Source: Naegleria gruberi (taxonomy: Eukaryota). From it: a stretch of DNA of 64,000 nucleotides. This document shows positions 5,759 to 63,809 of this stretch, one piece after another. The position numbers and the translations under genes were made by a program. Below the pieces are notes generated by a model. That model made no database searches. It saw only the letters and a program-made list of their open reading frames with translations, and was not told the origin of the DNA. Position 1 is the first letter of the stretch; each line of letters starts with the position of its first letter. Location of the stretch: the NCBI GenBank assembly GCA_000004985.1, contig GG738857.1; one strand, given 5' to 3'.

Positions 5759-6142
5759 ATGAACAAAATCGTTTCTGTCTGCATTCTTGCTCTCCTTGTC
5801 TTATCTGCTTGCTTGGTCAACTGTCAATACAGCAACAATTATGGTACCAATTATGGTTCATATGGAGGAGCTGGTTCTAACTATGGTGTCACTGGTGGAA
5901 ATTACAATCAATATGCTCAAAATACTCAATCCTATTTGAATCAAATTAATGCAGTCAACTCAAGTCCTTACTCAAGTTATGGATCTTCATATGTTGGCCC
6001 AACAAATTATGGTACTAACTATGGAAGTGCTTACTCAATGCCATTCTATGGTGGTTATGGAGGTTATGGTGTTCCTTATTATGGTGGTTATGGTGGTTAT
6101 GGTGGATATGGTGGTTGTGTTGGTGGTGTTAGATGGTGTTAA
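5759..6142 (+). CDS. Small secreted glycine/tyrosine-rich structural protein (cell wall, spore coat or cuticle-like)
   Basis: Signal peptide MNKIVSVCILALLVLSACLVNC, followed by GYGG/NYG repeats. Ends in GYGGYGGYGGCVGGVRWC. Confidence 0.6.
   Translation: MNKIVSVCILALLVLSACLVNCQYSNNYGTNYGSYGGAGSNYGVTGGNYNQYAQNTQSYLNQINAVNSSPYSSYGSSYVGPTNYGTNYGSAYSMPFYGGYGGYGVPYYGGYGGYGGYGGCVGGVRWC
6048..6130 (+). repeat. Tandem GGTGGTTATGG-type (GYGG-coding) microsatellite-like repeat inside the CDS
   Basis: Reiterated ggtggttatgg / ggaggttatgg / ggtggatatgg units are visible in the nucleotide sequence. Confidence 0.6.
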
Positions 6143-16193: not shown

Positions 16194-16267
16194 TACCGAC
16201 AATGGGGCTCGAACCCACGACCCCAGGATTAGAAGTCCTGTGCTCTATCCAACTGAGCTATGACGGC
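16194..16267 (-). tRNA. tRNA-Arg (anticodon UCU), copy 1
   Basis: Minus-strand sequence GCCGTCATAGCTCAGTTGGATAGAGCACAGGACTTCTAATCCTGGGGTCGTGGGTTCGAGCCCCATTGTCGGTA. It has a D-arm GCTC/GAGC, the anticodon loop CTTCTAA with U33 and A37, and the T-loop GGTTCGAGCC. It is followed immediately by a T6 run, an RNA polymerase III terminator. The acceptor stem has one T-T mismatch. Confidence 0.88.
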
Positions 16268-53907: not shown

Positions 53908-55620
53908 GTGAATGATACAGAATACACCAAGCAGGTAATTAAGGAGNNNNNNNNNNNNNNNNNNNNNNNNNNNNNNNNNNNNNNNNNNNNNNNNNNTGCA
54001 GATCATCAACAACACATGCAACATTATTTGGACAATTCCGGTGCTGGTCATCATTCCATGAATGTTGGTGGTCAATCCAACAATACAATTTCCTCCACTG
54101 CAAGTCATTATGTATTTGGTGGTGGAAGTAGTCAAGCTACTTCTACACTTCAACCTCTTCCAAATACCTCATCCTTGTTGAGTGGTGCAAGTGGAAACCA
54201 GCATGTTGTAGGAAACAATCAACATACAAATAATGGTCAATCTTCTACAACCTCAATACAAATACAATTACAGCAACTACAACAATATCAACAACAAAGA
54301 TATGGTACTAATAATACAACTCAACAATTGCCTTCCATGAATGCCTACCCATCTCAGCAAAATCAAGAAGATGACCAGTTGGCTGATTGGATGAATGAAC
54401 AACCTTCTAGAATGTTGCAACAACAAGAACTTCCTCCATTTGAGAATGATTTTGGATTTGATGGATGGTTCCAATCTGAGGAGAATCTTAATAATGTTCT
54501 ATCTCAACAATTGACTAATGGTTACTTCCAGAACTCAATGATGGGTAACTTGAACAACCAAGGTGCACAAGATATGGACAACTACCAATCAAGACAAATG
54601 GGACTCGGTTCCAACTTTAACCTTAATTCTGTGTCAGGTAATTTAATGCAAAATGGTCAACCAAATTTTGTAATGGACGATCCAAACTTTAATGTCTGGG
54701 GTGATGCTGGAGATTTAGATTTGGATGAAGGATTACTGAACAAACACCAAGGTAATCCACTCTTTGGCGGTACTCAACTCTTTACCAATCATACAATGTC
54801 GACAACTGAATCTAAGGGCGTGACTAGTATAACAGCATTGGCAAATAGTTTGAATTTCAGTGAATCTCCTCAAATGAAAAAGACAAGGAAATCGAAGAAG
54901 ACCAACAACTTAACAGAACACTATCAACAAAATGGCTTTGATGAATCTTATGAACAAAACATTTTAGATATGGACAATGAAAGCTTTAAGAATTATGTTA
55001 ACGGTTTGTATGGTGAAAAGGGAAAGAAGAAGAATAAGACTCAAATTCCATTCAATGAAGAAGACTTTTCAAAACTACTCCTAGCCAAGGAAAGAATTAC
55101 AGAACTGTACCACCAATGCCAGCAGGACAACATGAGTCTAGTCAACTCAGTGATGAGTCAATACACACCATCCATGGAGATGGATGATTCTTTAAGTAAC
55201 GAAATGAAAGAACTCTATGCCAAGGTTAACGCCAAACTGGACTATAAGAACACTGAGAATAAGAACCACTGTGAACAAGTGCTCAAGAAACTCATCTATG
55301 AATGGGTTGACATGGTTAAGGCTCAAAAAACAGTGGTCAGTTCAGACAAGACTAGTAATGATTCTTCCAACAAATCGAGCAAAAAATCAAAGAGTGCCAA
55401 CAGAAGACTTCCTAATGAAGCTAAGAAAGTTTTAGAAAATTGGTTCTTGGAACACTACAAGCATCCTTACCCAACCAATGAAGAAAAACAATGGCTAAGT
55501 GATCAAACTCAACTCAACCTCACTCAAATCAATAACTGGTTTATTAACAAGAGAGGGCGATCTCTCAAATTGGTGAAGGAAAAATTAAGGACTGAAACTG
55601 ATGATGGAGAAGAAGAATAA
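53908..55620 (+). CDS. TALE-class homeobox protein (MEIS/KNOX/PBX-like homeodomain at the C-terminus). The CDS is interrupted by an assembly gap.
   Basis: Homeodomain RRLPNEAKKVLENWFLEHYKHPYPTNEEKQWLSDQTQLNLTQINNWFINKRGR, with the three-residue loop extension HPYP and the WFIN motif. The N-terminal part is Q/N-rich. The start codon is uncertain because of the N-run and a possible GTAATT donor at 53927. Confidence 0.7.
   Translation: MNDTEYTKQVIKEXXXXXXXXXXXXXXXXXADHQQHMQHYLDNSGAGHHSMNVGGQSNNTISSTASHYVFGGGSSQATSTLQPLPNTSSLLSGASGNQHVVGNNQHTNNGQSSTTSIQIQLQQLQQYQQQRYGTNNTTQQLPSMNAYPSQQNQEDDQLADWMNEQPSRMLQQQELPPFENDFGFDGWFQSEENLNNVLSQQLTNGYFQNSMMGNLNNQGAQDMDNYQSRQMGLGSNFNLNSVSGNLMQNGQPNFVMDDPNFNVWGDAGDLDLDEGLLNKHQGNPLFGGTQLFTNHTMSTTESKGVTSITALANSLNFSESPQMKKTRKSKKTNNLTEHYQQNGFDESYEQNILDMDNESFKNYVNGLYGEKGKKKNKTQIPFNEEDFSKLLLAKERITELYHQCQQDNMSLVNSVMSQYTPSMEMDDSLSNEMKELYAKVNAKLDYKNTENKNHCEQVLKKLIYEWVDMVKAQKTVVSSDKTSNDSSNKSSKKSKSANRRLPNEAKKVLENWFLEHYKHPYPTNEEKQWLSDQTQLNLTQINNWFINKRGRSLKLVKEKLRTETDDGEEE
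53947..53996. other. Assembly gap (run of 50 N)
   Basis: A literal N-run in the sequence. Confidence 0.99.
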
Positions 55621-55690: not shown

Positions 55691-56701
55691 ATGAGCATAA
55701 CGGAACCATTGATTGTTGATCGTATTTTAAAGTATTGTCATCATTCTGATTGGAAGGTGGTCAAGCCATTTCTTATAAGCAAACAATTTCATGAGGTGTT
55801 TAACAATTTTACTTTTGCCAAGGATTATTTGATCAATTTATTCCAACTATCGGAATATCAAATTAATCTCCTAAGTGAAGCAATTACCTATTTTTCATCA
55901 CAACAATCTGGTAGTGCTGAAACAGACAATGGATGTAAAAAACCAAAGAAGAAAAAGAGGAAAACAATTAAATTTGAAAAGTATGAAAATGTTGATCAGG
56001 TTTATATGGGAATTTTAGAACTTTATGTAAAATGTAATTTGAAAAATCAAGATAGTGAAGTTAGAAGAGCAAATAAGAGGCTGCAGAAGAATTTTAGTAA
56101 CATGTTGGGTGAATGGAAGATGGACAGATTTAATTTCACAGCTGATTTGAATGATATGATCTCCAATCACAAGGGAATTTTCATGACTGAGTTTGAGATT
56201 TCGAGTCCTGGCTTCTACAGTTACGGAGGTATCACTCAACGCTCAGAGTTTGTGTTATTCACTCATTGTGGGTTTCCTCTAACTTTCAGAAATCAGTACT
56301 CAACTTATTTAGAACTAGATCATTGCTGTTGTGATGTTACGGAAATTTGTGGTTTCAGAAATATTTGTAACAAGCGGTTTGATAGAGGAGGTGAAGAAGA
56401 ATTGTTTCGTCATGCACTCTCATACTCTGGGCACAATGGGACTCAAAATATGGGCACACAATTTTCTGAAAGAGCTTTTAATGGAATATTAATGACATTA
56501 TTCCATCATGCTGAAAATTACTTTGGAGGTTATGATTCACAAGAAGGTTTCGAACAGGAGAAAATACTGGGAACAATGCTATACGAAATTTTAAATTGCT
56601 CACTTGTTGCCTCAGATAATGGTAAGAGCTTCTTTGCTGAGAAATTTCAAGAGGAGGATGACTTTGAAGGTTTACCTTTTTACTCTAGGAACCGTTACTG
56701 A
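55691..56701 (+). CDS. Hypothetical protein (336 aa) with an internal KKPKKKKRK basic cluster
   Basis: ORF with no recognisable domain. A possible nuclear localisation signal is present. Confidence 0.45.
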   Translation: MSITEPLIVDRILKYCHHSDWKVVKPFLISKQFHEVFNNFTFAKDYLINLFQLSEYQINLLSEAITYFSSQQSGSAETDNGCKKPKKKKRKTIKFEKYENVDQVYMGILELYVKCNLKNQDSEVRRANKRLQKNFSNMLGEWKMDRFNFTADLNDMISNHKGIFMTEFEISSPGFYSYGGITQRSEFVLFTHCGFPLTFRNQYSTYLELDHCCCDVTEICGFRNICNKRFDRGGEEELFRHALSYSGHNGTQNMGTQFSERAFNGILMTLFHHAENYFGGYDSQEGFEQEKILGTMLYEILNCSLVASDNGKSFFAEKFQEEDDFEGLPFYSRNRY

Positions 56702-56879
56702 TATTCATAGTACTATTCAGATGTTCCTTTTTTACACCATTGTGTTTTCAATTAATTGGAATAAAGTTAAAATTTGAAAATCTGATGGGCTCCAAACACG
56801 TTCACAATGTTGATATTCCTGTGGCTGATTTAATATGAAGGAAGTCGTTGTTTTTAAAAAGACAAAAGACTACAGCACC

Positions 56880-57298
56880 ACAGGTTCCCAAGTTGTCTCC
56901 AACCTCAGTACTGATGTGGCTCGACGATGCTTAACTTCTCAAATCGGACGGGATGAGGTGCATTCATCGTGATATGGCCGTAGCCATTAAATTCCTTAAT
57001 ATCTGAATTATAAATATATTATCTATACTAAATTGAACGTTTTCAGACCTCAAGTTGTTAATTCAGTTCTCCAGTCTGGACGTTTGATTGCTGATGCATG
57101 TGAATCATTCGCCGAACATTGTATTGATGGATTCAAGCTAACGAACCAAAGATTAAGGAATATGTCCAAAACTCCTTAATGTTGGTAACTGCCTTGAACA
57201 CAATTATTGGGAATGCAAAGAAGGCCTACCAAGAAAATATCAGCTTGAAGCAAGCTTGTTTGGACCTCAATTTTCTTACCAATTATTCCTTTCATTAA
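56880..57298 (+). pseudogene. Decayed 3' fragment of a class II fumarate hydratase (fumarase/aspartase family) gene
   Basis: Frame 0 (57033-57164) reads LNVFRPQVVNSVLQSGRLIADACESFAEHCIDGFKLTNQRL. Frame 2 (57149-57298) reads [49 protein letters not shown]. Together they align to the fumarase C-terminus [94 protein letters not shown]. At least one frameshift lies in an A-run at about 57147-57150. Weaker, multiply frameshifted similarity extends upstream to about 56880. No room exists for the N-terminal two-thirds of the protein. Confidence 0.5.
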
Positions 57299-57494
57299 AA
57301 GTTATCAGGTTTCTAATTTGTTTGATAAGAAATTTTATCAATTCTAATAAGTTTCTTTCCAATAATTTATTATTCAATTTACCAACAACGTTACTCTTTA
57401 AAACTGGACTACCTTAATGCATCGAAAGTAAAATGTTGTCAGATTTATAAAAACGAAGGAAATTGAATTGAGTTTCTGGAGGCTAAAAAACAGA

Positions 57495-57568
57495 TACCGA
57501 CAATGGGGCTCGAACCCACGACCCCAGGATTAGAAGTCCTGTGCTCTATCCAACTGAGCTATGACGGC
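57495..57568 (-). tRNA. tRNA-Arg (anticodon UCU), copy 2
   Basis: The 74-nt sequence is identical to copy 1 and is followed by T6 (plus strand cagataccgacaatggggctcgaaccc...). The flanking sequences are unrelated to those of copy 1. Confidence 0.88.
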
Positions 57569-57980
57569 TTCACATTGAAATACATTAAGGGTGGATGGCT
57601 CACTAAATACAATTAGTCGGCTGGGAGAATAGAATGATCGGAATGAATGGTAATGCATACTTGGAGAAATGGTTACCATAGCGAATCATTTGACAAGGTG
57701 CAAAATTCATTTTTCTGATTCAGGACCAACTTCAATCACACGATAGGAGTAATGGACACTGTTTAAACTCTTGGAAGTAAGGGTTAGCTTTTCAGGGATC
57801 AAACTAGAGTCACAATAATACCTATAAAAATCGTTGGCTATTTTTATTAAGGTTAAATAAATAAATTTAAAATTGTGGAAGGAGAGTATTAACTGGATGT
57901 TAATACTTCATCTCCATGTGGACGAATCCAATAAAAATACAATAATGGTTTTTTTCCGAATTGAGCAGTTTTATTAGATT

Positions 57981-58966
57981 TCAATCATTGCAATTATAGT
58001 ATTTATCATAGTCATAATCATAATAAAAATCATCAGAATAATCTTCTTCATAGTGCTCAAGAATTGGTTGTTCCCATTTCTTTCGATCTTCCAAAAAAGT
58101 ACTCATGTAATAGTACTCGTTACTGAAATATAGAGCTGTGGATGGTTTTTCAATAATGAATGAACAAACTAAGTTGAACGTATCTCCACACAACTGAACA
58201 AGAGGATGTCCACGAAGAATTGGATTGGCATTTGGTTCTTTTCCCTTTTCCCTTATTAGGAATGCAGGTTTCACATCTTTCCATGTTTGTTCCTTTCTTT
58301 TCTGTTGATAACATTTCTTGAACTCTTCTTTCACTTCATTGCTCTTCACTCTATTTTCCAAATCCTTGAAATCTATTGCACCTAGAAACTGACATTTTGA
58401 ATACAGAGCTTTGATTATTTCCACTTTTGGATTTTCAACACAATGATGCATCAAATCATCACAATTCAAACCATATATTGCTGTTTTGAACAACATTTTG
58501 AACATTTCCACATTTCCAAGCTCTACAGCTACATAAATGGCTCTCAACTTATTCACATTTCTCTGTTGTGTCTGAAGTAACCATTTCAATAGTTGAACTT
58601 TTCCACTTTTGACCGATTTTGTAAGTGGATCTTCTTTACAATCATCAACAACGTATCTCATTCTCTGTTTCTGATTGCAATTGCGATAGAGAAATTTGGC
58701 AATTTCCAAATTTCCACTCTCACACGCAGCAAGGAATGGTGTCTTCTTTCGGTTGTCCTTTGTTAGAAGTTGTGAGCCAGCATGGAATAAACATTGAACA
58801 ATTTCCAAGTGGGTTTTACATTTGCATGCATGAATTAATGGAGTGGAGCCATCTTTTGTTCTCACACTCATTAGGTTTCTATTGGAGGAGGAGATTCGTT
58901 TAACTTCCTCACATTGATTGTTTGATATGCATTCAATCAATTCATTAAATTGTTCTAAAGACATTT
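57981..58966 (-). CDS. Ankyrin-repeat protein
   Basis: DGSTPLIHACKCKTHLEIVQCLFHAG, KKTPFLAACESGNLEIAKFLY and LRAIYVAVELGNVEMFKMLF are ankyrin repeats. The probable start is MVQKMSLEQF at 58966. The ORF stays open upstream to 59300 through a hydrophobic, low-complexity stretch that is probably not coding. Confidence 0.6.
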
Positions 58967-59483
58967 TTTGCACCATGACTATGTTAGTTGACTTTGTCGA
59001 ATGACATTTAACAACTATTGTGACTTCCCAACACCAACTAATTTTAACTTGTGAATTCAAAGCAAATAAATTATGAAAATTAACAAGCCAACTGTTGAAG
59101 TGTCTTTTACAACTCATAATCTCAATATTTATTAAATTGCATTTAGTTAATAATGTTATATTTCCAGGTGTTTGTTCACAAAGAACAAAACCAAGTAAGG
59201 TGTGAATCAACATTAAGCAAAAACCAATGAATTTAAAAAAAAATTTAAAATTATAAAATGAAAAACAAAATGATTGGAATGTATCAAATATCGCACACAA
59301 CCAGCGATTTTTGATATCTCTTCGCTAAGAGAACCTTTCAAAGAGTTGTACTGGAGGAAAGCAGTGAGAGGTTTTTTTACGCGGTGGAATATTTAGATTG
59401 GTTAAAAAACCAGCCTCGGCAAGTGAGCACAACGCTCGTGGATTTTCTCATCAATTTATTATTTATTTCTGGATACAGCAAGA

Positions 59484-62400
59484 ATGAAATGTCTAGCATT
59501 CAATAATGGCTTGTTATTGTTGTTGGTCATTATGATGATGATGACAACAATTTCAACAATTAGAAGTGAAGTTACTTGTTTCAACAAGAGGAAAATTACT
59601 ATGAAGTTTAAATCATCAGCGATGGGACAAACGTGTGATGGAGAGGCTGCATGCTTTTCTAAACAAAATACCAGATTGGAAACTAATTTTGATGTTCCTA
59701 AAGACCCTTGGACAGATTTTGATCTATCTAAATACTATGTTTTAGCTACGTCTGGCTCATTGAGAGCAACTGTTAGTAGTGTTTTTAATCCTTGTCTTTC
59801 TGATTCTTCAAATTTGAATTCAACTTCTTCATTTAGTATCAATGGTCAACCTGTTTATATTGGTAGAAAGAATTTAGGTAAAGACTTTGTTACTTACAAA
59901 TGTATCAGTAGAGGAAGTTGTAGTGAAACTTTTTCAGCTACTTCCAGTGATGAGGAATATCCATATTCTGGGTTTTTAAATTTGACATCTTCTGGAAATA
60001 CAGCTGTTTTGGAATATAGTGATCCATCAACAGATCTTTGTGTGTATAGTTTGGATTTTACCTTTTGCTATATGTCAAAGAATTACATTATATATGATTT
60101 AAGATTGCAAGTAGATGATATCACAACAAAACCTCTCAAAATTATTTCTCCAAAAACCATGGAAAGTCTTAAACAGGATGTTCTCATACCTCAATCATAT
60201 GACCCTCTGCAAAATGGATATTCTGACAAGTTTACTAGAAAGATTAAAATTACAAACAAGTTAATTGTGCAGACAGGTCTTAACTTATTTAATTTGAAAA
60301 TCTTTCCAAATAACGCCAATTTTAAAGATCCACTAGTTGTTGATATTATTTCAATTACTAAGGAAAAGACAATTGACGGAAGTATAATCAGCCAAGATAT
60401 TTCTGGAAAGTACCAAATTTCAAACAGATCACTTTCTGATTACAATATCAAATTTAACACATCCCTCTCTGTGGATGAAATAATTACTGTTCAATTAACC
60501 CTTGGTGTCAACGGCGAAATTACATCATCAGTTTATGACATGAACATGAATTACAGAATTGAAACGATAGACGAGAATACCTATAATTTACAAGATACCA
60601 CAATAATGGATGGTGTCTATTATTTCAGAAGATCAGATATTACTGCTACCTATGATACAAACCAAAAGATAGCTGCAAAGAGTTTAGTTTCTGACATGGT
60701 CTCTCTTGAGTATGTAAGCGAATCTGAAGAGGATGGAAAATGTTACCTACAAGTTAATACATTGTATGGCTCTTCTTCAGATAAATTTTCTGGACTCTTA
60801 TTTATTTATTCCAGTAAAACTGGAAAACAATATTCCATGAAATTTGGACAAGATTATACACTCGATAAGAGTACCAAACAGATTGGTCAGTATATAATTC
60901 CACCTGAATTACTCGATTGCTCATCTGTTGGAGTTAAAACTAATATTTATTTTAAATGGGTGGTTCTCTCTTCAAATTCATATACAACAACTGAACCATC
61001 TGCCAACTTCCAAATTGCTATTTCCAAGAAGAGTATTATCTTTGTCAATGATCTTGCCAATGCCAACATAGAACTTACCTTTTCTCAACGGTATGAGAGC
61101 AATGTAATTCTCCTAAAGTCAAATCCACCAAATATGATTGTTCCTTACGATGTTATACTTAAAAACTCGTATTCATCATCTGCATCACCATTTGCTTCAT
61201 ACTTGTCCTATTCAGTGCCTCTCTCATGGTTAGATAATAGCCCAATGAACTTGAATCCTGTTAGTTATCCACAATTATCTACAGACTTTTCTGCCAGTGA
61301 AATCTATTTGAAAACAGGAATGTATTTCGGATTTATAGAAAAAAGTTGTAGTGTTCTTCCATGTAAAAGTTCAATTAACTTCCAGCTTAACAGTCAATTG
61401 GCTAATCCTCAATCTATTGCTGTAGATACAACCATCAAAGTTTCTCAATCAGGATACAGATCAAGTGGATATATAACAGCTGTTTCAATCCCTTCCTCTT
61501 TAGCTAGAGCAGCTAGCTCGTCAAAATTTAATTTAAGAGTACTAGCTGAAGTGAAAGAGACATATTATAATTCCTACTCAACCAAAAATCCGTATTATTT
61601 GCAAGTGAGTAAGGGATCTGTTGGAATGACTCAAAATCCACCTTACAATTCAACTTTTGGGCAACAAATAGCCTCCCAAAACTACTTGACCACTGATAAG
61701 TGTGCTTCCACCTCATCGACTGGTTATTTAACAGTTAATATTCCGATTCGTGATGAAAGTGACTATGGAACTTGGTACATAGCCTTTTTTGTAGATCCTA
61801 ATTCTTCCTTTGATGTGAAATATACCATTAATTTGATGAGTAACATAATCCCATTGAAATTGTCTACTACTTCTTCAAAGGCAGCTCTTACCTACACTCC
61901 AATTTCTTCAGTAATATATGGTTTGCAGTTCAGTTCAGAAACAAATTCTGACTCATCATTACTACTAACATTCGATGGATATAGTTTGGAAACAAATTCA
62001 TTTGAAGGAAGTGGTATTCAAGTATTTTTAAAACATGGGTCTATGCCCACAGAGAACGATTATGATGTATTATCTCCAGTGTTAACTGGAAGTCTTTCAT
62101 TCATTGCTCGCTTCGTATATTCAGACAAAGTTACTTTCAGATATTTGATGGATAATTCATATTATTCTGATCCAGCAGAAAGGATTAAATACCCAGAGGA
62201 TTATTACAAGACTTCCATACTTTCAAATTCAAAACTTGATTCCAGCACCCTCTATGTATTGATAAAGAGAGTTCCATCAGGACAAGGCTATACGAATTGT
62301 GTTAGTAGCTCTTATATTGTTTCCCCAAGTTCTTCCTATATTGCTTACCAGTACAGTTCATCTCCTTCAGTTGTTGGAGGATATCTAGAGAAAATGAAAT

Positions 62401-63809
62401 CACAAGTTATCAGTGTGAATCCAGATGTAATAGGTGCAAACCTTGCAATTTCCAATGGTAATCAACTAATGATTGACTTTAATCAAGAAACAATAATTCC
62501 TAATTACGCATCCAAACCAACCATTGTTAGTTACGATGGAAAGAAATTAGAAATTCTTGTTGATCAAAATTCCACAATTAATTCTGACTCTATTTCAGTA
62601 TCTGCCTATACGTTTAAATATTATATTTGGGGGAAATCAGGCCAAACACCAACAGTATCTTTTAGATATTCTATTAATGCCAAACTAAGTGTTGATGAGA
62701 AATCTGGAAAATACTCTCAACAAGTATTCATCGTTTTCCCAGTTAAGAGTGGATATGTTACTCAAGACTCTCCGTATGACACAATTGTTAGAATTAACAG
62801 TAGATATCAACCATCAACATACCTTATTGAAAGTCTCACACCATCTATTATTGCCACAGCCATTGTGGTTGGTATTAGTTTCATTATGAGTTGCATTTAT
62901 TTTGTTTGGTCTGTTTTTATTGTTGTCGTAAAGAGAGGAGAATTTAATTTTGGAACAGTAAGTCCTCAAATGTGGCTTGGCTGTTTGTGTCCAGCTTCTC
63001 TACCAGTTTCTATCTGTTATTTCTACTACTTTGCTCACGAAGGTTTTCAGCAAAAGCTTGCATCACCACCTGTAAAAAGAAGAAGAAGGACTAGAATTTT
63101 AATTGCCCTCTCTATTATTTCATTCACTATTGGAGTTCTATTTGGATTATATTTGTATGGACATGTGGCATTTAATCATCTTGGATTAGAATTATCAGCT
63201 CATTTCAATTTATATACTTTGGGAAAACGTACCACTGATTCTACCTATTCTTCATCGAACCTTATTCCTTGTTGTGCCCAAACTAGAACAGGTACATCCA
63301 AAGATAAGCAATTCAGGACATACTTTGGGGTTGAATCAAGTACCTTTACACCAAAATTTTCAGGGGGAAGATTGGATTGTATTAAGGACCTTGATAGTAT
63401 TGTTAGAGATGCCTTGAGAAGTAAATTCGTTTTGGATGAAATTAATGGACAAAAATATGAACCACCAACTGATAGCGCCATCCAAAAGACAAGCTATGGC
63501 TATTCAAATGCCTTTCAGATGGCTACAGTTTATTGTGTAGGAAACTCAGTTGTACTAATGAAAGCAGACGATTCCTATAACGAATATGGTATTCCAGGAG
63601 CATTCCTTTCTGTTTTCCCAATACTTTATTCATTCTATTTAATTATCCTTGTAATATTCGAAAAGATATTTGGTGATGGAAGAAAGTTGAGTGAATCAAA
63701 TAATGACCAAATTGGAAGAACAACTTTACTATTAGGCAACAATACTGGCTATGAACCAAATACTAATGAAGCCTCTTACAATCCAAACATTCAAAGTACT
63801 GAACAATAA
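59484..63809 (+). CDS. Very large (1441 aa) S/T/N-rich type I membrane glycoprotein with a C-terminal cluster of about 4 TM helices; unknown function
   Basis: Signal peptide MKCLAFNNGLLLLLVIMMMMTTISTIRS. A long ectodomain with many N-x-S/T sites. TM helices IIATAIVVGISFIMSCIYFVWSVFIVVV, ILIALSIISFTIGVLFGLYLYG and GAFLSVFPILYSFYLIILVIF. Confidence 0.6.
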   Translation: MKCLAFNNGLLLLLVIMMMMTTISTIRSEVTCFNKRKITMKFKSSAMGQTCDGEAACFSKQNTRLETNFDVPKDPWTDFDLSKYYVLATSGSLRATVSSVFNPCLSDSSNLNSTSSFSINGQPVYIGRKNLGKDFVTYKCISRGSCSETFSATSSDEEYPYSGFLNLTSSGNTAVLEYSDPSTDLCVYSLDFTFCYMSKNYIIYDLRLQVDDITTKPLKIISPKTMESLKQDVLIPQSYDPLQNGYSDKFTRKIKITNKLIVQTGLNLFNLKIFPNNANFKDPLVVDIISITKEKTIDGSIISQDISGKYQISNRSLSDYNIKFNTSLSVDEIITVQLTLGVNGEITSSVYDMNMNYRIETIDENTYNLQDTTIMDGVYYFRRSDITATYDTNQKIAAKSLVSDMVSLEYVSESEEDGKCYLQVNTLYGSSSDKFSGLLFIYSSKTGKQYSMKFGQDYTLDKSTKQIGQYIIPPELLDCSSVGVKTNIYFKWVVLSSNSYTTTEPSANFQIAISKKSIIFVNDLANANIELTFSQRYESNVILLKSNPPNMIVPYDVILKNSYSSSASPFASYLSYSVPLSWLDNSPMNLNPVSYPQLSTDFSASEIYLKTGMYFGFIEKSCSVLPCKSSINFQLNSQLANPQSIAVDTTIKVSQSGYRSSGYITAVSIPSSLARAASSSKFNLRVLAEVKETYYNSYSTKNPYYLQVSKGSVGMTQNPPYNSTFGQQIASQNYLTTDKCASTSSTGYLTVNIPIRDESDYGTWYIAFFVDPNSSFDVKYTINLMSNIIPLKLSTTSSKAALTYTPISSVIYGLQFSSETNSDSSLLLTFDGYSLETNSFEGSGIQVFLKHGSMPTENDYDVLSPVLTGSLSFIARFVYSDKVTFRYLMDNSYYSDPAERIKYPEDYYKTSILSNSKLDSSTLYVLIKRVPSGQGYTNCVSSSYIVSPSSSYIAYQYSSSPSVVGGYLEKMKSQVISVNPDVIGANLAISNGNQLMIDFNQETIIPNYASKPTIVSYDGKKLEILVDQNSTINSDSISVSAYTFKYYIWGKSGQTPTVSFRYSINAKLSVDEKSGKYSQQVFIVFPVKSGYVTQDSPYDTIVRINSRYQPSTYLIESLTPSIIATAIVVGISFIMSCIYFVWSVFIVVVKRGEFNFGTVSPQMWLGCLCPASLPVSICYFYYFAHEGFQQKLASPPVKRRRRTRILIALSIISFTIGVLFGLYLYGHVAFNHLGLELSAHFNLYTLGKRTTDSTYSSSNLIPCCAQTRTGTSKDKQFRTYFGVESSTFTPKFSGGRLDCIKDLDSIVRDALRSKFVLDEINGQKYEPPTDSAIQKTSYGYSNAFQMATVYCVGNSVVLMKADDSYNEYGIPGAFLSVFPILYSFYLIILVIFEKIFGDGRKLSESNNDQIGRTTLLLGNNTGYEPNTNEASYNPNIQSTEQ

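Follow-up and report, generated by a model that had tools for sequence, protein, structure and literature searches.

Does a short intergenic spacer of the amoeba Naegleria gruberi hold a working gene for fumarate hydratase (fumarase), an enzyme of the Krebs cycle, or only the remains of one? The question is raised by a stretch of about 270 bases at 57030-57299 on the plus strand, in which about 90 residues, spread over two or three reading frames, match class II fumarase. The window, by which we mean the whole 64-kb stretch of DNA analyzed here, is nuclear DNA of this heterolobosean amoeba and has a G+C content of 33%. The fumarase-like piece is housed in a 1.28-kb spacer (56702-57980) together with two RNA polymerase III genes, both on the other strand. 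On the right this spacer is bounded by an ankyrin-repeat open reading frame (ORF) on the minus strand (57981-59300), and on the left by a plus-strand ORF (55691-56701) of 336 amino acids that contains no Pfam domain and matches an N. gruberi 'predicted protein' with 100% identity. An earlier sequence-only reading of this DNA had considered the left-hand ORF to be unrelated to fumarase and to leave no space for the N-terminal part of the enzyme, and we agree on both points. The 336 codons of this ORF are open from an ATG, and the matching NCBI protein (P0001) has 231 amino acids and starts at an internal Met (MGILELYV...). No homologue other than the ORF itself was found in a protein search; it is either an orphan gene or one for which the P0001 gene model is too short.

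The extent of the fumarase similarity was determined with a profile built from 120 fumarase sequences, which spans about 300 residues at the C-terminal end (some two-thirds of the protein, with the signature loop) and was run on all six frames of the 64 kb with filters off, reporting to E <= 100. Two adjoining pieces were recovered, both on the plus strand. The first, frame A (57030-57130), has the translation KLNVFRPQVVNSVLQSGRLIADACESFAEHCIDG and an iE of 6.7e-13; it consists of KLNVFRPQVVNSVLQSGRLIADACESFAEHCID plus the GG of a Gly codon, starts from about FumC residue 358 and corresponds to human FH residues of about 404-437. The second, frame B (57131-57298, 55 residues, the homologous segment running to 57292), falls in the FumaraseC_C region with an iE of 2.5e-15, and is laid out as 27 residues, a deletion, and another 27 residues. 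Joined, the two frames yield 89 residues (SIGNIFICANCE) that align to residues 358-450 of E. coli FumC with a phmmer E-value of 5e-20 in a search of solved structures, in which yeast and human FH score about 1e-19. The two-frame fumarase C-terminus described by the sequence-only reading is thereby confirmed, and the absence of any significant alignment to the fumarase family, which that reading had named as the outcome that would count against it, was checked and does not apply. The LMLVTALN octapeptide (within SLMLVTALN) and the S-x-R-L-x-x-D-A-x-x-S-F-x-E-x-C-x-x-G block, both of which it had singled out, are also present. The Pfam FumaraseC_C model (PF10415) scores 30.2-31.4 bits against a cut-off of 32.5, falling just short because of an 18-bp deletion and the missing end of the domain. 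The similarity to fumarase, judged on these alignments, is real and far above chance.

Beyond these two pieces, neither the profile at E <= 100 nor tblastn with full-length FH gave any further fumarase signal in the 64 kb. Specifically, the Lyase_1 domain, with its GSSxMPxKxN loop and active-site residues, is absent from every frame of the window by both methods. Two weak minus-strand tblastn matches, TLIKIAND (57853-57830) and PSTLNVFQCEA (57598-57563, over the 5' end of a tRNA gene), were rejected as fumarase because their order and spacing do not fit a colinear gene and because the profile, run with --max, is silent there at E <= 100. We also ruled out a spliced gene with distant exons, since the window contains no other fumarase-like exon and no AG is found at the 5' boundary of homology. 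Where a functional fumarase would have an uninterrupted frame of about 460-500 codons opened by a start codon, the window has about 90 codons over two or three frames, representing only about 19% of the fumarase protein.

Weaker fumarase similarity had been reported to continue upstream of these pieces (QIGRDEV / MAVAI, about 56930-56995). This proved to be mistaken: the DNA from which these residues are read belongs to a 5S rRNA gene, complete and on the minus strand (56867-56985), which matches Rfam RF00001 over model positions 1-120 with 105.4 bits against a gathering threshold of 38. The fumarase profile is silent in this region at E <= 100, and homology to the closest relative described below starts at 57031. 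Runs of four and five T residues, serving as terminators, directly follow the 3' end of the 5S gene (56867-56856), and a TATA-like TATATTTATAA that lies some 23-33 bp before its start may act as the 5S promoter. Because the 64 kb contain a single 5S copy, a dispersed arrangement of the 5S genes seems more likely here than a tandem one. The fragment and the 5S gene are arranged head to head, their 5' ends about 45-46 bp apart and separated by a spacer of 44-45 bp (56986-57029) with a G+C content of 13%. For annotation, recognition of a 5S rRNA gene in the spacer 56702-57980, previously read as protein similarity, is a gain, as are the corrected lesion coordinates given below.

The second polymerase III gene, a tRNA-Arg(UCU) gene at 57495-57568, is encoded on the same strand as the 5S gene, about 510 bp from it, and ends in a T6 terminator (57487-57492, A6 on the plus strand). 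The fragment had been placed upstream of this gene; as the tRNA lies on the minus strand, the fragment is in fact downstream, on its 3' side, tail to tail and about 195 bp away. An identical tRNA-Arg(UCU) gene occurs at 16194-16267, also on the minus strand and 41.3 kb distant. Similarity between the two loci ends at the gene borders, save for the T-run and a few bases, and a segmental duplication linking them was ruled out, only the tRNA gene being common to both.

The closest relative that we found is a 122-amino-acid ORF (P0002) on L001, a 658-bp metagenome contig (ENA ERZ27237200, k141_562439). The fragment is 74% identical to P0002 and 76% identical to L001. This contig is itself a chimera, made up of three pieces from a single fumarase gene. 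Positions 1 to about 186 carry the middle region in minus orientation, about 188-545 the C-terminal region in plus orientation, and about 551-658 part of the middle region once more, also in plus orientation. Its inverted ends of about 100 nt look like an amplification or assembly artefact. At the DNA level, homology of the fragment to L001 sets in sharply at 57031 (AATTGAACGTTTTCAGACC) and is gone by about 57299, and local alignments of the flanks to L001 score no higher than shuffled sequence. The fragment also stands out in composition, with 36.8% G+C versus 13-30% in the surrounding spacer.

Comparison with L001 allowed the damage to be located. The sequence-only reading had proposed a single-nucleotide slip between the two frames and had put it in an A-run at 57147-57150; the slip is there, whereas the site is not the A-run but the Gly codon at 57129-57131, from which one base has been lost (GG|ATT), with the next frame continuing IQAN. 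We place this first frameshift in the Gly codon because frame B reads homologous IQAN from 57131, where L001 has GGA TTA. Further downstream, within GGG AAT at 57209-57214 and at about 57211/57212, an in-frame deletion of 18 bp relative to L001 has removed the residues Y-D-N-A-A-K/V. The deleted columns are among the most constant of the family: in 120 fumarases the Tyr is conserved in all 120, the Asp in 111, the Asn in 112, the two Ala in 118 and 116, and the Lys in 114. An extra C at 57293, after TTT (Phe), is probably a second frameshift (57293-57299), as ATT AAA then reads I-K and the shifted frame reproduces the lineage-specific F-I-K of L001, a match of two residues and correspondingly weak evidence; the unshifted frame runs into a TAA stop at 57296-57298. 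The last 12 or so codons, including the V-x-P-E-x-M C-terminus, are unrecognizable, and no ATG is found ahead of the homologous region. The fragment has thus been disabled at least twice independently, and probably three times. It cannot make fumarase, because it lacks a start, the N-terminal and central lyase domain and the last codons, and because it bears a frameshift, a deletion and a probable second shift.

Could these lesions instead be sequencing or assembly errors inside a genuine, expressed, but truncated lyase-family gene or small ORF? The two frames differ by a single base, and an ATG-initiated ORF of 39 codons lies within the fragment at 57179-57298, as such an explanation would expect. 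It is nevertheless extremely unlikely, in that the homologous region has no start before it, near-invariant residues have gone with the 18-bp deletion, the catalytic domains are absent from 64 kb, and the sequence matches no recorded protein among the matches listed, all of which were shorter than about 1.75 times the query. The more specific fallback of the sequence-only reading, a homopolymer error in a genuinely truncated gene, is unlikely as well, since the slip lies outside any homopolymer and since correcting it would leave the 18-bp deletion, the missing ends and the second shift in place. It is conceivable that the first frameshift arose in assembly; the deletion and truncations would persist.

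The substitutions that separate the fragment from L001 present a different picture from its lesions. Over 87 aligned codons, 19, 4 and 47 differences fall at codon positions 1, 2 and 3, respectively, and dN is about 0.14 with dS saturated, for a dN/dS of about 0.1. The relaxed, neutral pattern expected of a relic is therefore not seen in this comparison. Likewise, the breakpoint and the deleted residues aside, the fragment retains the residues that are invariant among the 120 fumarases. This pattern suggests that nearly all of the divergence from L001 built up under protein-level selection. Since most of the divergence would then predate the loss of function, that loss appears to have been recent relative to the split from the organism of L001, and the relic would be young. 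The constrained pattern does not contradict pseudogene status, which is shown by the lesions. The very low load of amino-acid-changing differences would also fit some remaining constraint, or homogenization by gene conversion.

To what lineage does the sequence belong? Against each of 120 other fumarases, the identity of the fragment, counted over the full-length alignment, does not exceed 57%. A representatives search with 57131-57295, in a library of 1.8 billion proteins, gave best matches of 67-70% over the full-length alignment; no near-identical representative was found there, which is unsurprising, the library being clustered at 50% identity. The matches listed in the protein homologue searches were all shorter than about 1.75 times the query, full-length fumarases apparently having been filtered out. 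A metagenome scan with the codon-degenerate pattern L-N-V-F-R-P-Q-V returned 17 loci, none of them fumarase. The fragment and L001 share unusual residues, including R302, Q304, V305, N307, S308, Q370 and C379 among others, and the two together would constitute a lineage of their own, consistent with a heterolobosean gene.

A foreign source, with DNA of a bacterium or of ingested prey having integrated into the amoeba genome, was also considered. Naegleria feeds on bacteria, and the closest relative is a metagenome contig. When the C-terminus encoded by L001 was compared with one genome per species for 185,579 bacterial and archaeal species, however, the best identity was 63%, versus 76% between the fragment and L001, and a recent bacterial origin was rejected on this basis. 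The G+C content and codon style of the fragment are those of the host, and Naegleria species have a class II fumarase of their own (PMC8296547). Foreign DNA is thus an exceedingly improbable source.

The host's own fumarase has been catalogued elsewhere. In supplementary file 7 of Herman et al. 2021 (PMC8296547), three N. fowleri strains are credited with 'fumarase class II' genes that have Lyase and FumaraseC_C domains, and jgi|Naegr1|83307|estExt_fgeneshNG_pm.C_660002 is given as the N. gruberi orthologue. From this published table, an intact class II fumarase appears to exist elsewhere in N. gruberi. Going by the JGI naming convention, model 83307 would lie on scaffold 66, and so on another scaffold. 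Because 83307 is listed as a class II fumarase, the fragment at 57030-57299 is read here as a spare, partial paralogous copy.

Together, these observations indicate that 57030-57299 is very probably a non-functional, doubly truncated pseudogene fragment of a class II fumarate hydratase of the Naegleria lineage, a spare copy that originated at the DNA level and is drifting. It combines significant homology to a functional family with disabling lesions, the two properties by which a pseudogene is recognized. The central proposal of the sequence-only reading, a truncated, decaying and non-functional copy of the fumarase C-terminus, is accordingly supported by the significant homology, the lack of a start, the lesions and the absence of any other fumarase in 64 kb. 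As to how the copy arose, a short piece may have been ectopically inserted or duplicated, in which case it would have been non-functional from the outset. Alternatively, a duplicate may have lost all but this piece to a rearrangement or deletion ending at the polymerase III genes. By either route the copy would now be drifting. We favor a DNA-level event because no reverse-transcriptase, transposase or other domain remnant, terminal inverted repeat, target-site duplication or poly(A) was found, and because the two tRNA-Arg loci share only the tRNA gene. Specifically, a domain search of the spacer 56702-57980 detected no transposase, reverse transcriptase or other protein domain, and terminal inverted repeats, target-site duplications and flanking direct repeats were looked for in the spacer and none were found. 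Capture by a transposon was rejected on the same grounds.

The second of these routes can be taken further. The fragment could be what is left, in place, of a whole second (or ancestral) fumarase gene from which a breakpoint at the polymerase III genes removed 1.2 kb of the 5' part as well as the 3' end. Both ends of the fragment are sharp and its interior is almost unmutated, its 5' end abuts the promoter region of the 5S gene, and in yeasts tRNA genes are landmarks of rearrangement breakpoints and of gene relics. Against such wreckage in situ, no residual fumarase signal is detected beyond the 5S gene or elsewhere in the window, and the left side is filled by the intact 336-codon ORF. We regard it as a possible but tentative version of events; it is a sub-case of the DNA-level spare copy and does not contradict it.

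An RNA-level origin was weighed against the same features. Fumarase mRNA would have been reverse-transcribed, truncated at the 5' end and inserted beside the polymerase III genes by retrotransposon machinery. In favor of this origin, no part of the gene other than the C-terminal one is found, and the fragment begins about 46 bp ahead of the 5S gene in head-to-head orientation. TRE5-A of Dictyostelium reportedly inserts roughly 48 bp upstream and in an orientation-specific manner, and by analogy the geometry of the fragment would resemble that of TRE5-A. A retro-copy should have kept its 3' end, however, and here neither a 3' UTR nor the final 12 or so codons can be recognized; the fragment is surrounded by neither a poly(A) tract nor target-site duplications, and the spacer holds no reverse-transcriptase remnant. 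To our knowledge, no retroelement that targets polymerase III genes has been described from Naegleria, nor does the literature searched mention one. Such a retro-copy is very improbable. Very improbable, too, is the bolder proposal that a polymerase III-targeting machinery so far unrecognized in Naegleria, analogous to TRE5 of Dictyostelium, placed a 5'-truncated fumarase cDNA head to head with the 5S gene at a distance of about 46 bp, or that the fragment has spread in many copies with a mobile 5S unit.

We then compared the DNA-level spare copy with known systems. With class II fumarate hydratase (FumC/FH; Lyase_1, PF00206, plus FumaraseC_C, PF10415) the fragment shares an alignment to FumC 358-450 in which most invariant residues are kept. 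It differs in having no catalytic lyase domain, SS loop, start codon or native C-terminus and in the deletion of six near-invariant residues, and so it is derived from this family without being a functional member of it. A second comparison is offered by the gene relics of compact genomes. In Saccharomyces, such relics are often found near tRNA genes and rearrangement breakpoints. The fragment resembles relics of this type in being a short homologous piece, frameshifted and deleted, that lies in a spacer beside polymerase III genes while a gene for the protein is listed elsewhere. Unlike those of Saccharomyces, its host is a heterolobosean, and the link to a breakpoint or duplication is here a proposed one. 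No catalogue of gene relics for heterolobosean amoebae was found in the literature searched. Processed pseudogenes and polymerase III-targeted retroelements, among the latter TRE5 and TRE3 of Dictyostelium and Ty3 of yeast, provide a third comparison. A 5'-truncated coding copy whose 5' end lies about 46 bp from a polymerase III gene, head to head, is reminiscent of TRE5/TRE3/Ty3-type insertions; in contrast to processed pseudogenes, the fragment has no poly(A), target-site duplication, 3' end of the coding sequence or retroelement sequence.

The fragment is thus an ordinary, previously unannotated gene relic of a well-known kind, and it bears on no open question in fumarase biochemistry or Naegleria metabolism. 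It should be flagged as a pseudogene fragment, lest it be counted as a second fumarase or taken for a gene transfer. As a small marker that can be dated it also has potential value, since an alignment to 83307 would reveal how recent the copying or stranding of short gene pieces beside polymerase III genes is in this genome.

Several other features of the window were recorded. To the left of the spacer, the ORF at 53908-55620 encodes a Q/N-rich homeobox protein of the TALE class (Homeobox_KN, 63.5 bits), and a run of 50 N, an assembly gap, falls inside its N-terminal part (53947-53996). Far upstream, at 6047-6128, a short tandem array of an imperfect 9-nt repeat, TATGGTGGT and variants, encodes Tyr-Gly-Gly, which suggests a Gly/Tyr-rich low-complexity coding region. 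To the right of the spacer, an uninterrupted ORF of 1441 codons on the plus strand (59484-63809) has no Pfam match and combines a signal-like N-terminus, a long Ser/Thr-rich body and C-terminal hydrophobic segments; it probably encodes a large, lineage-specific surface or membrane protein.
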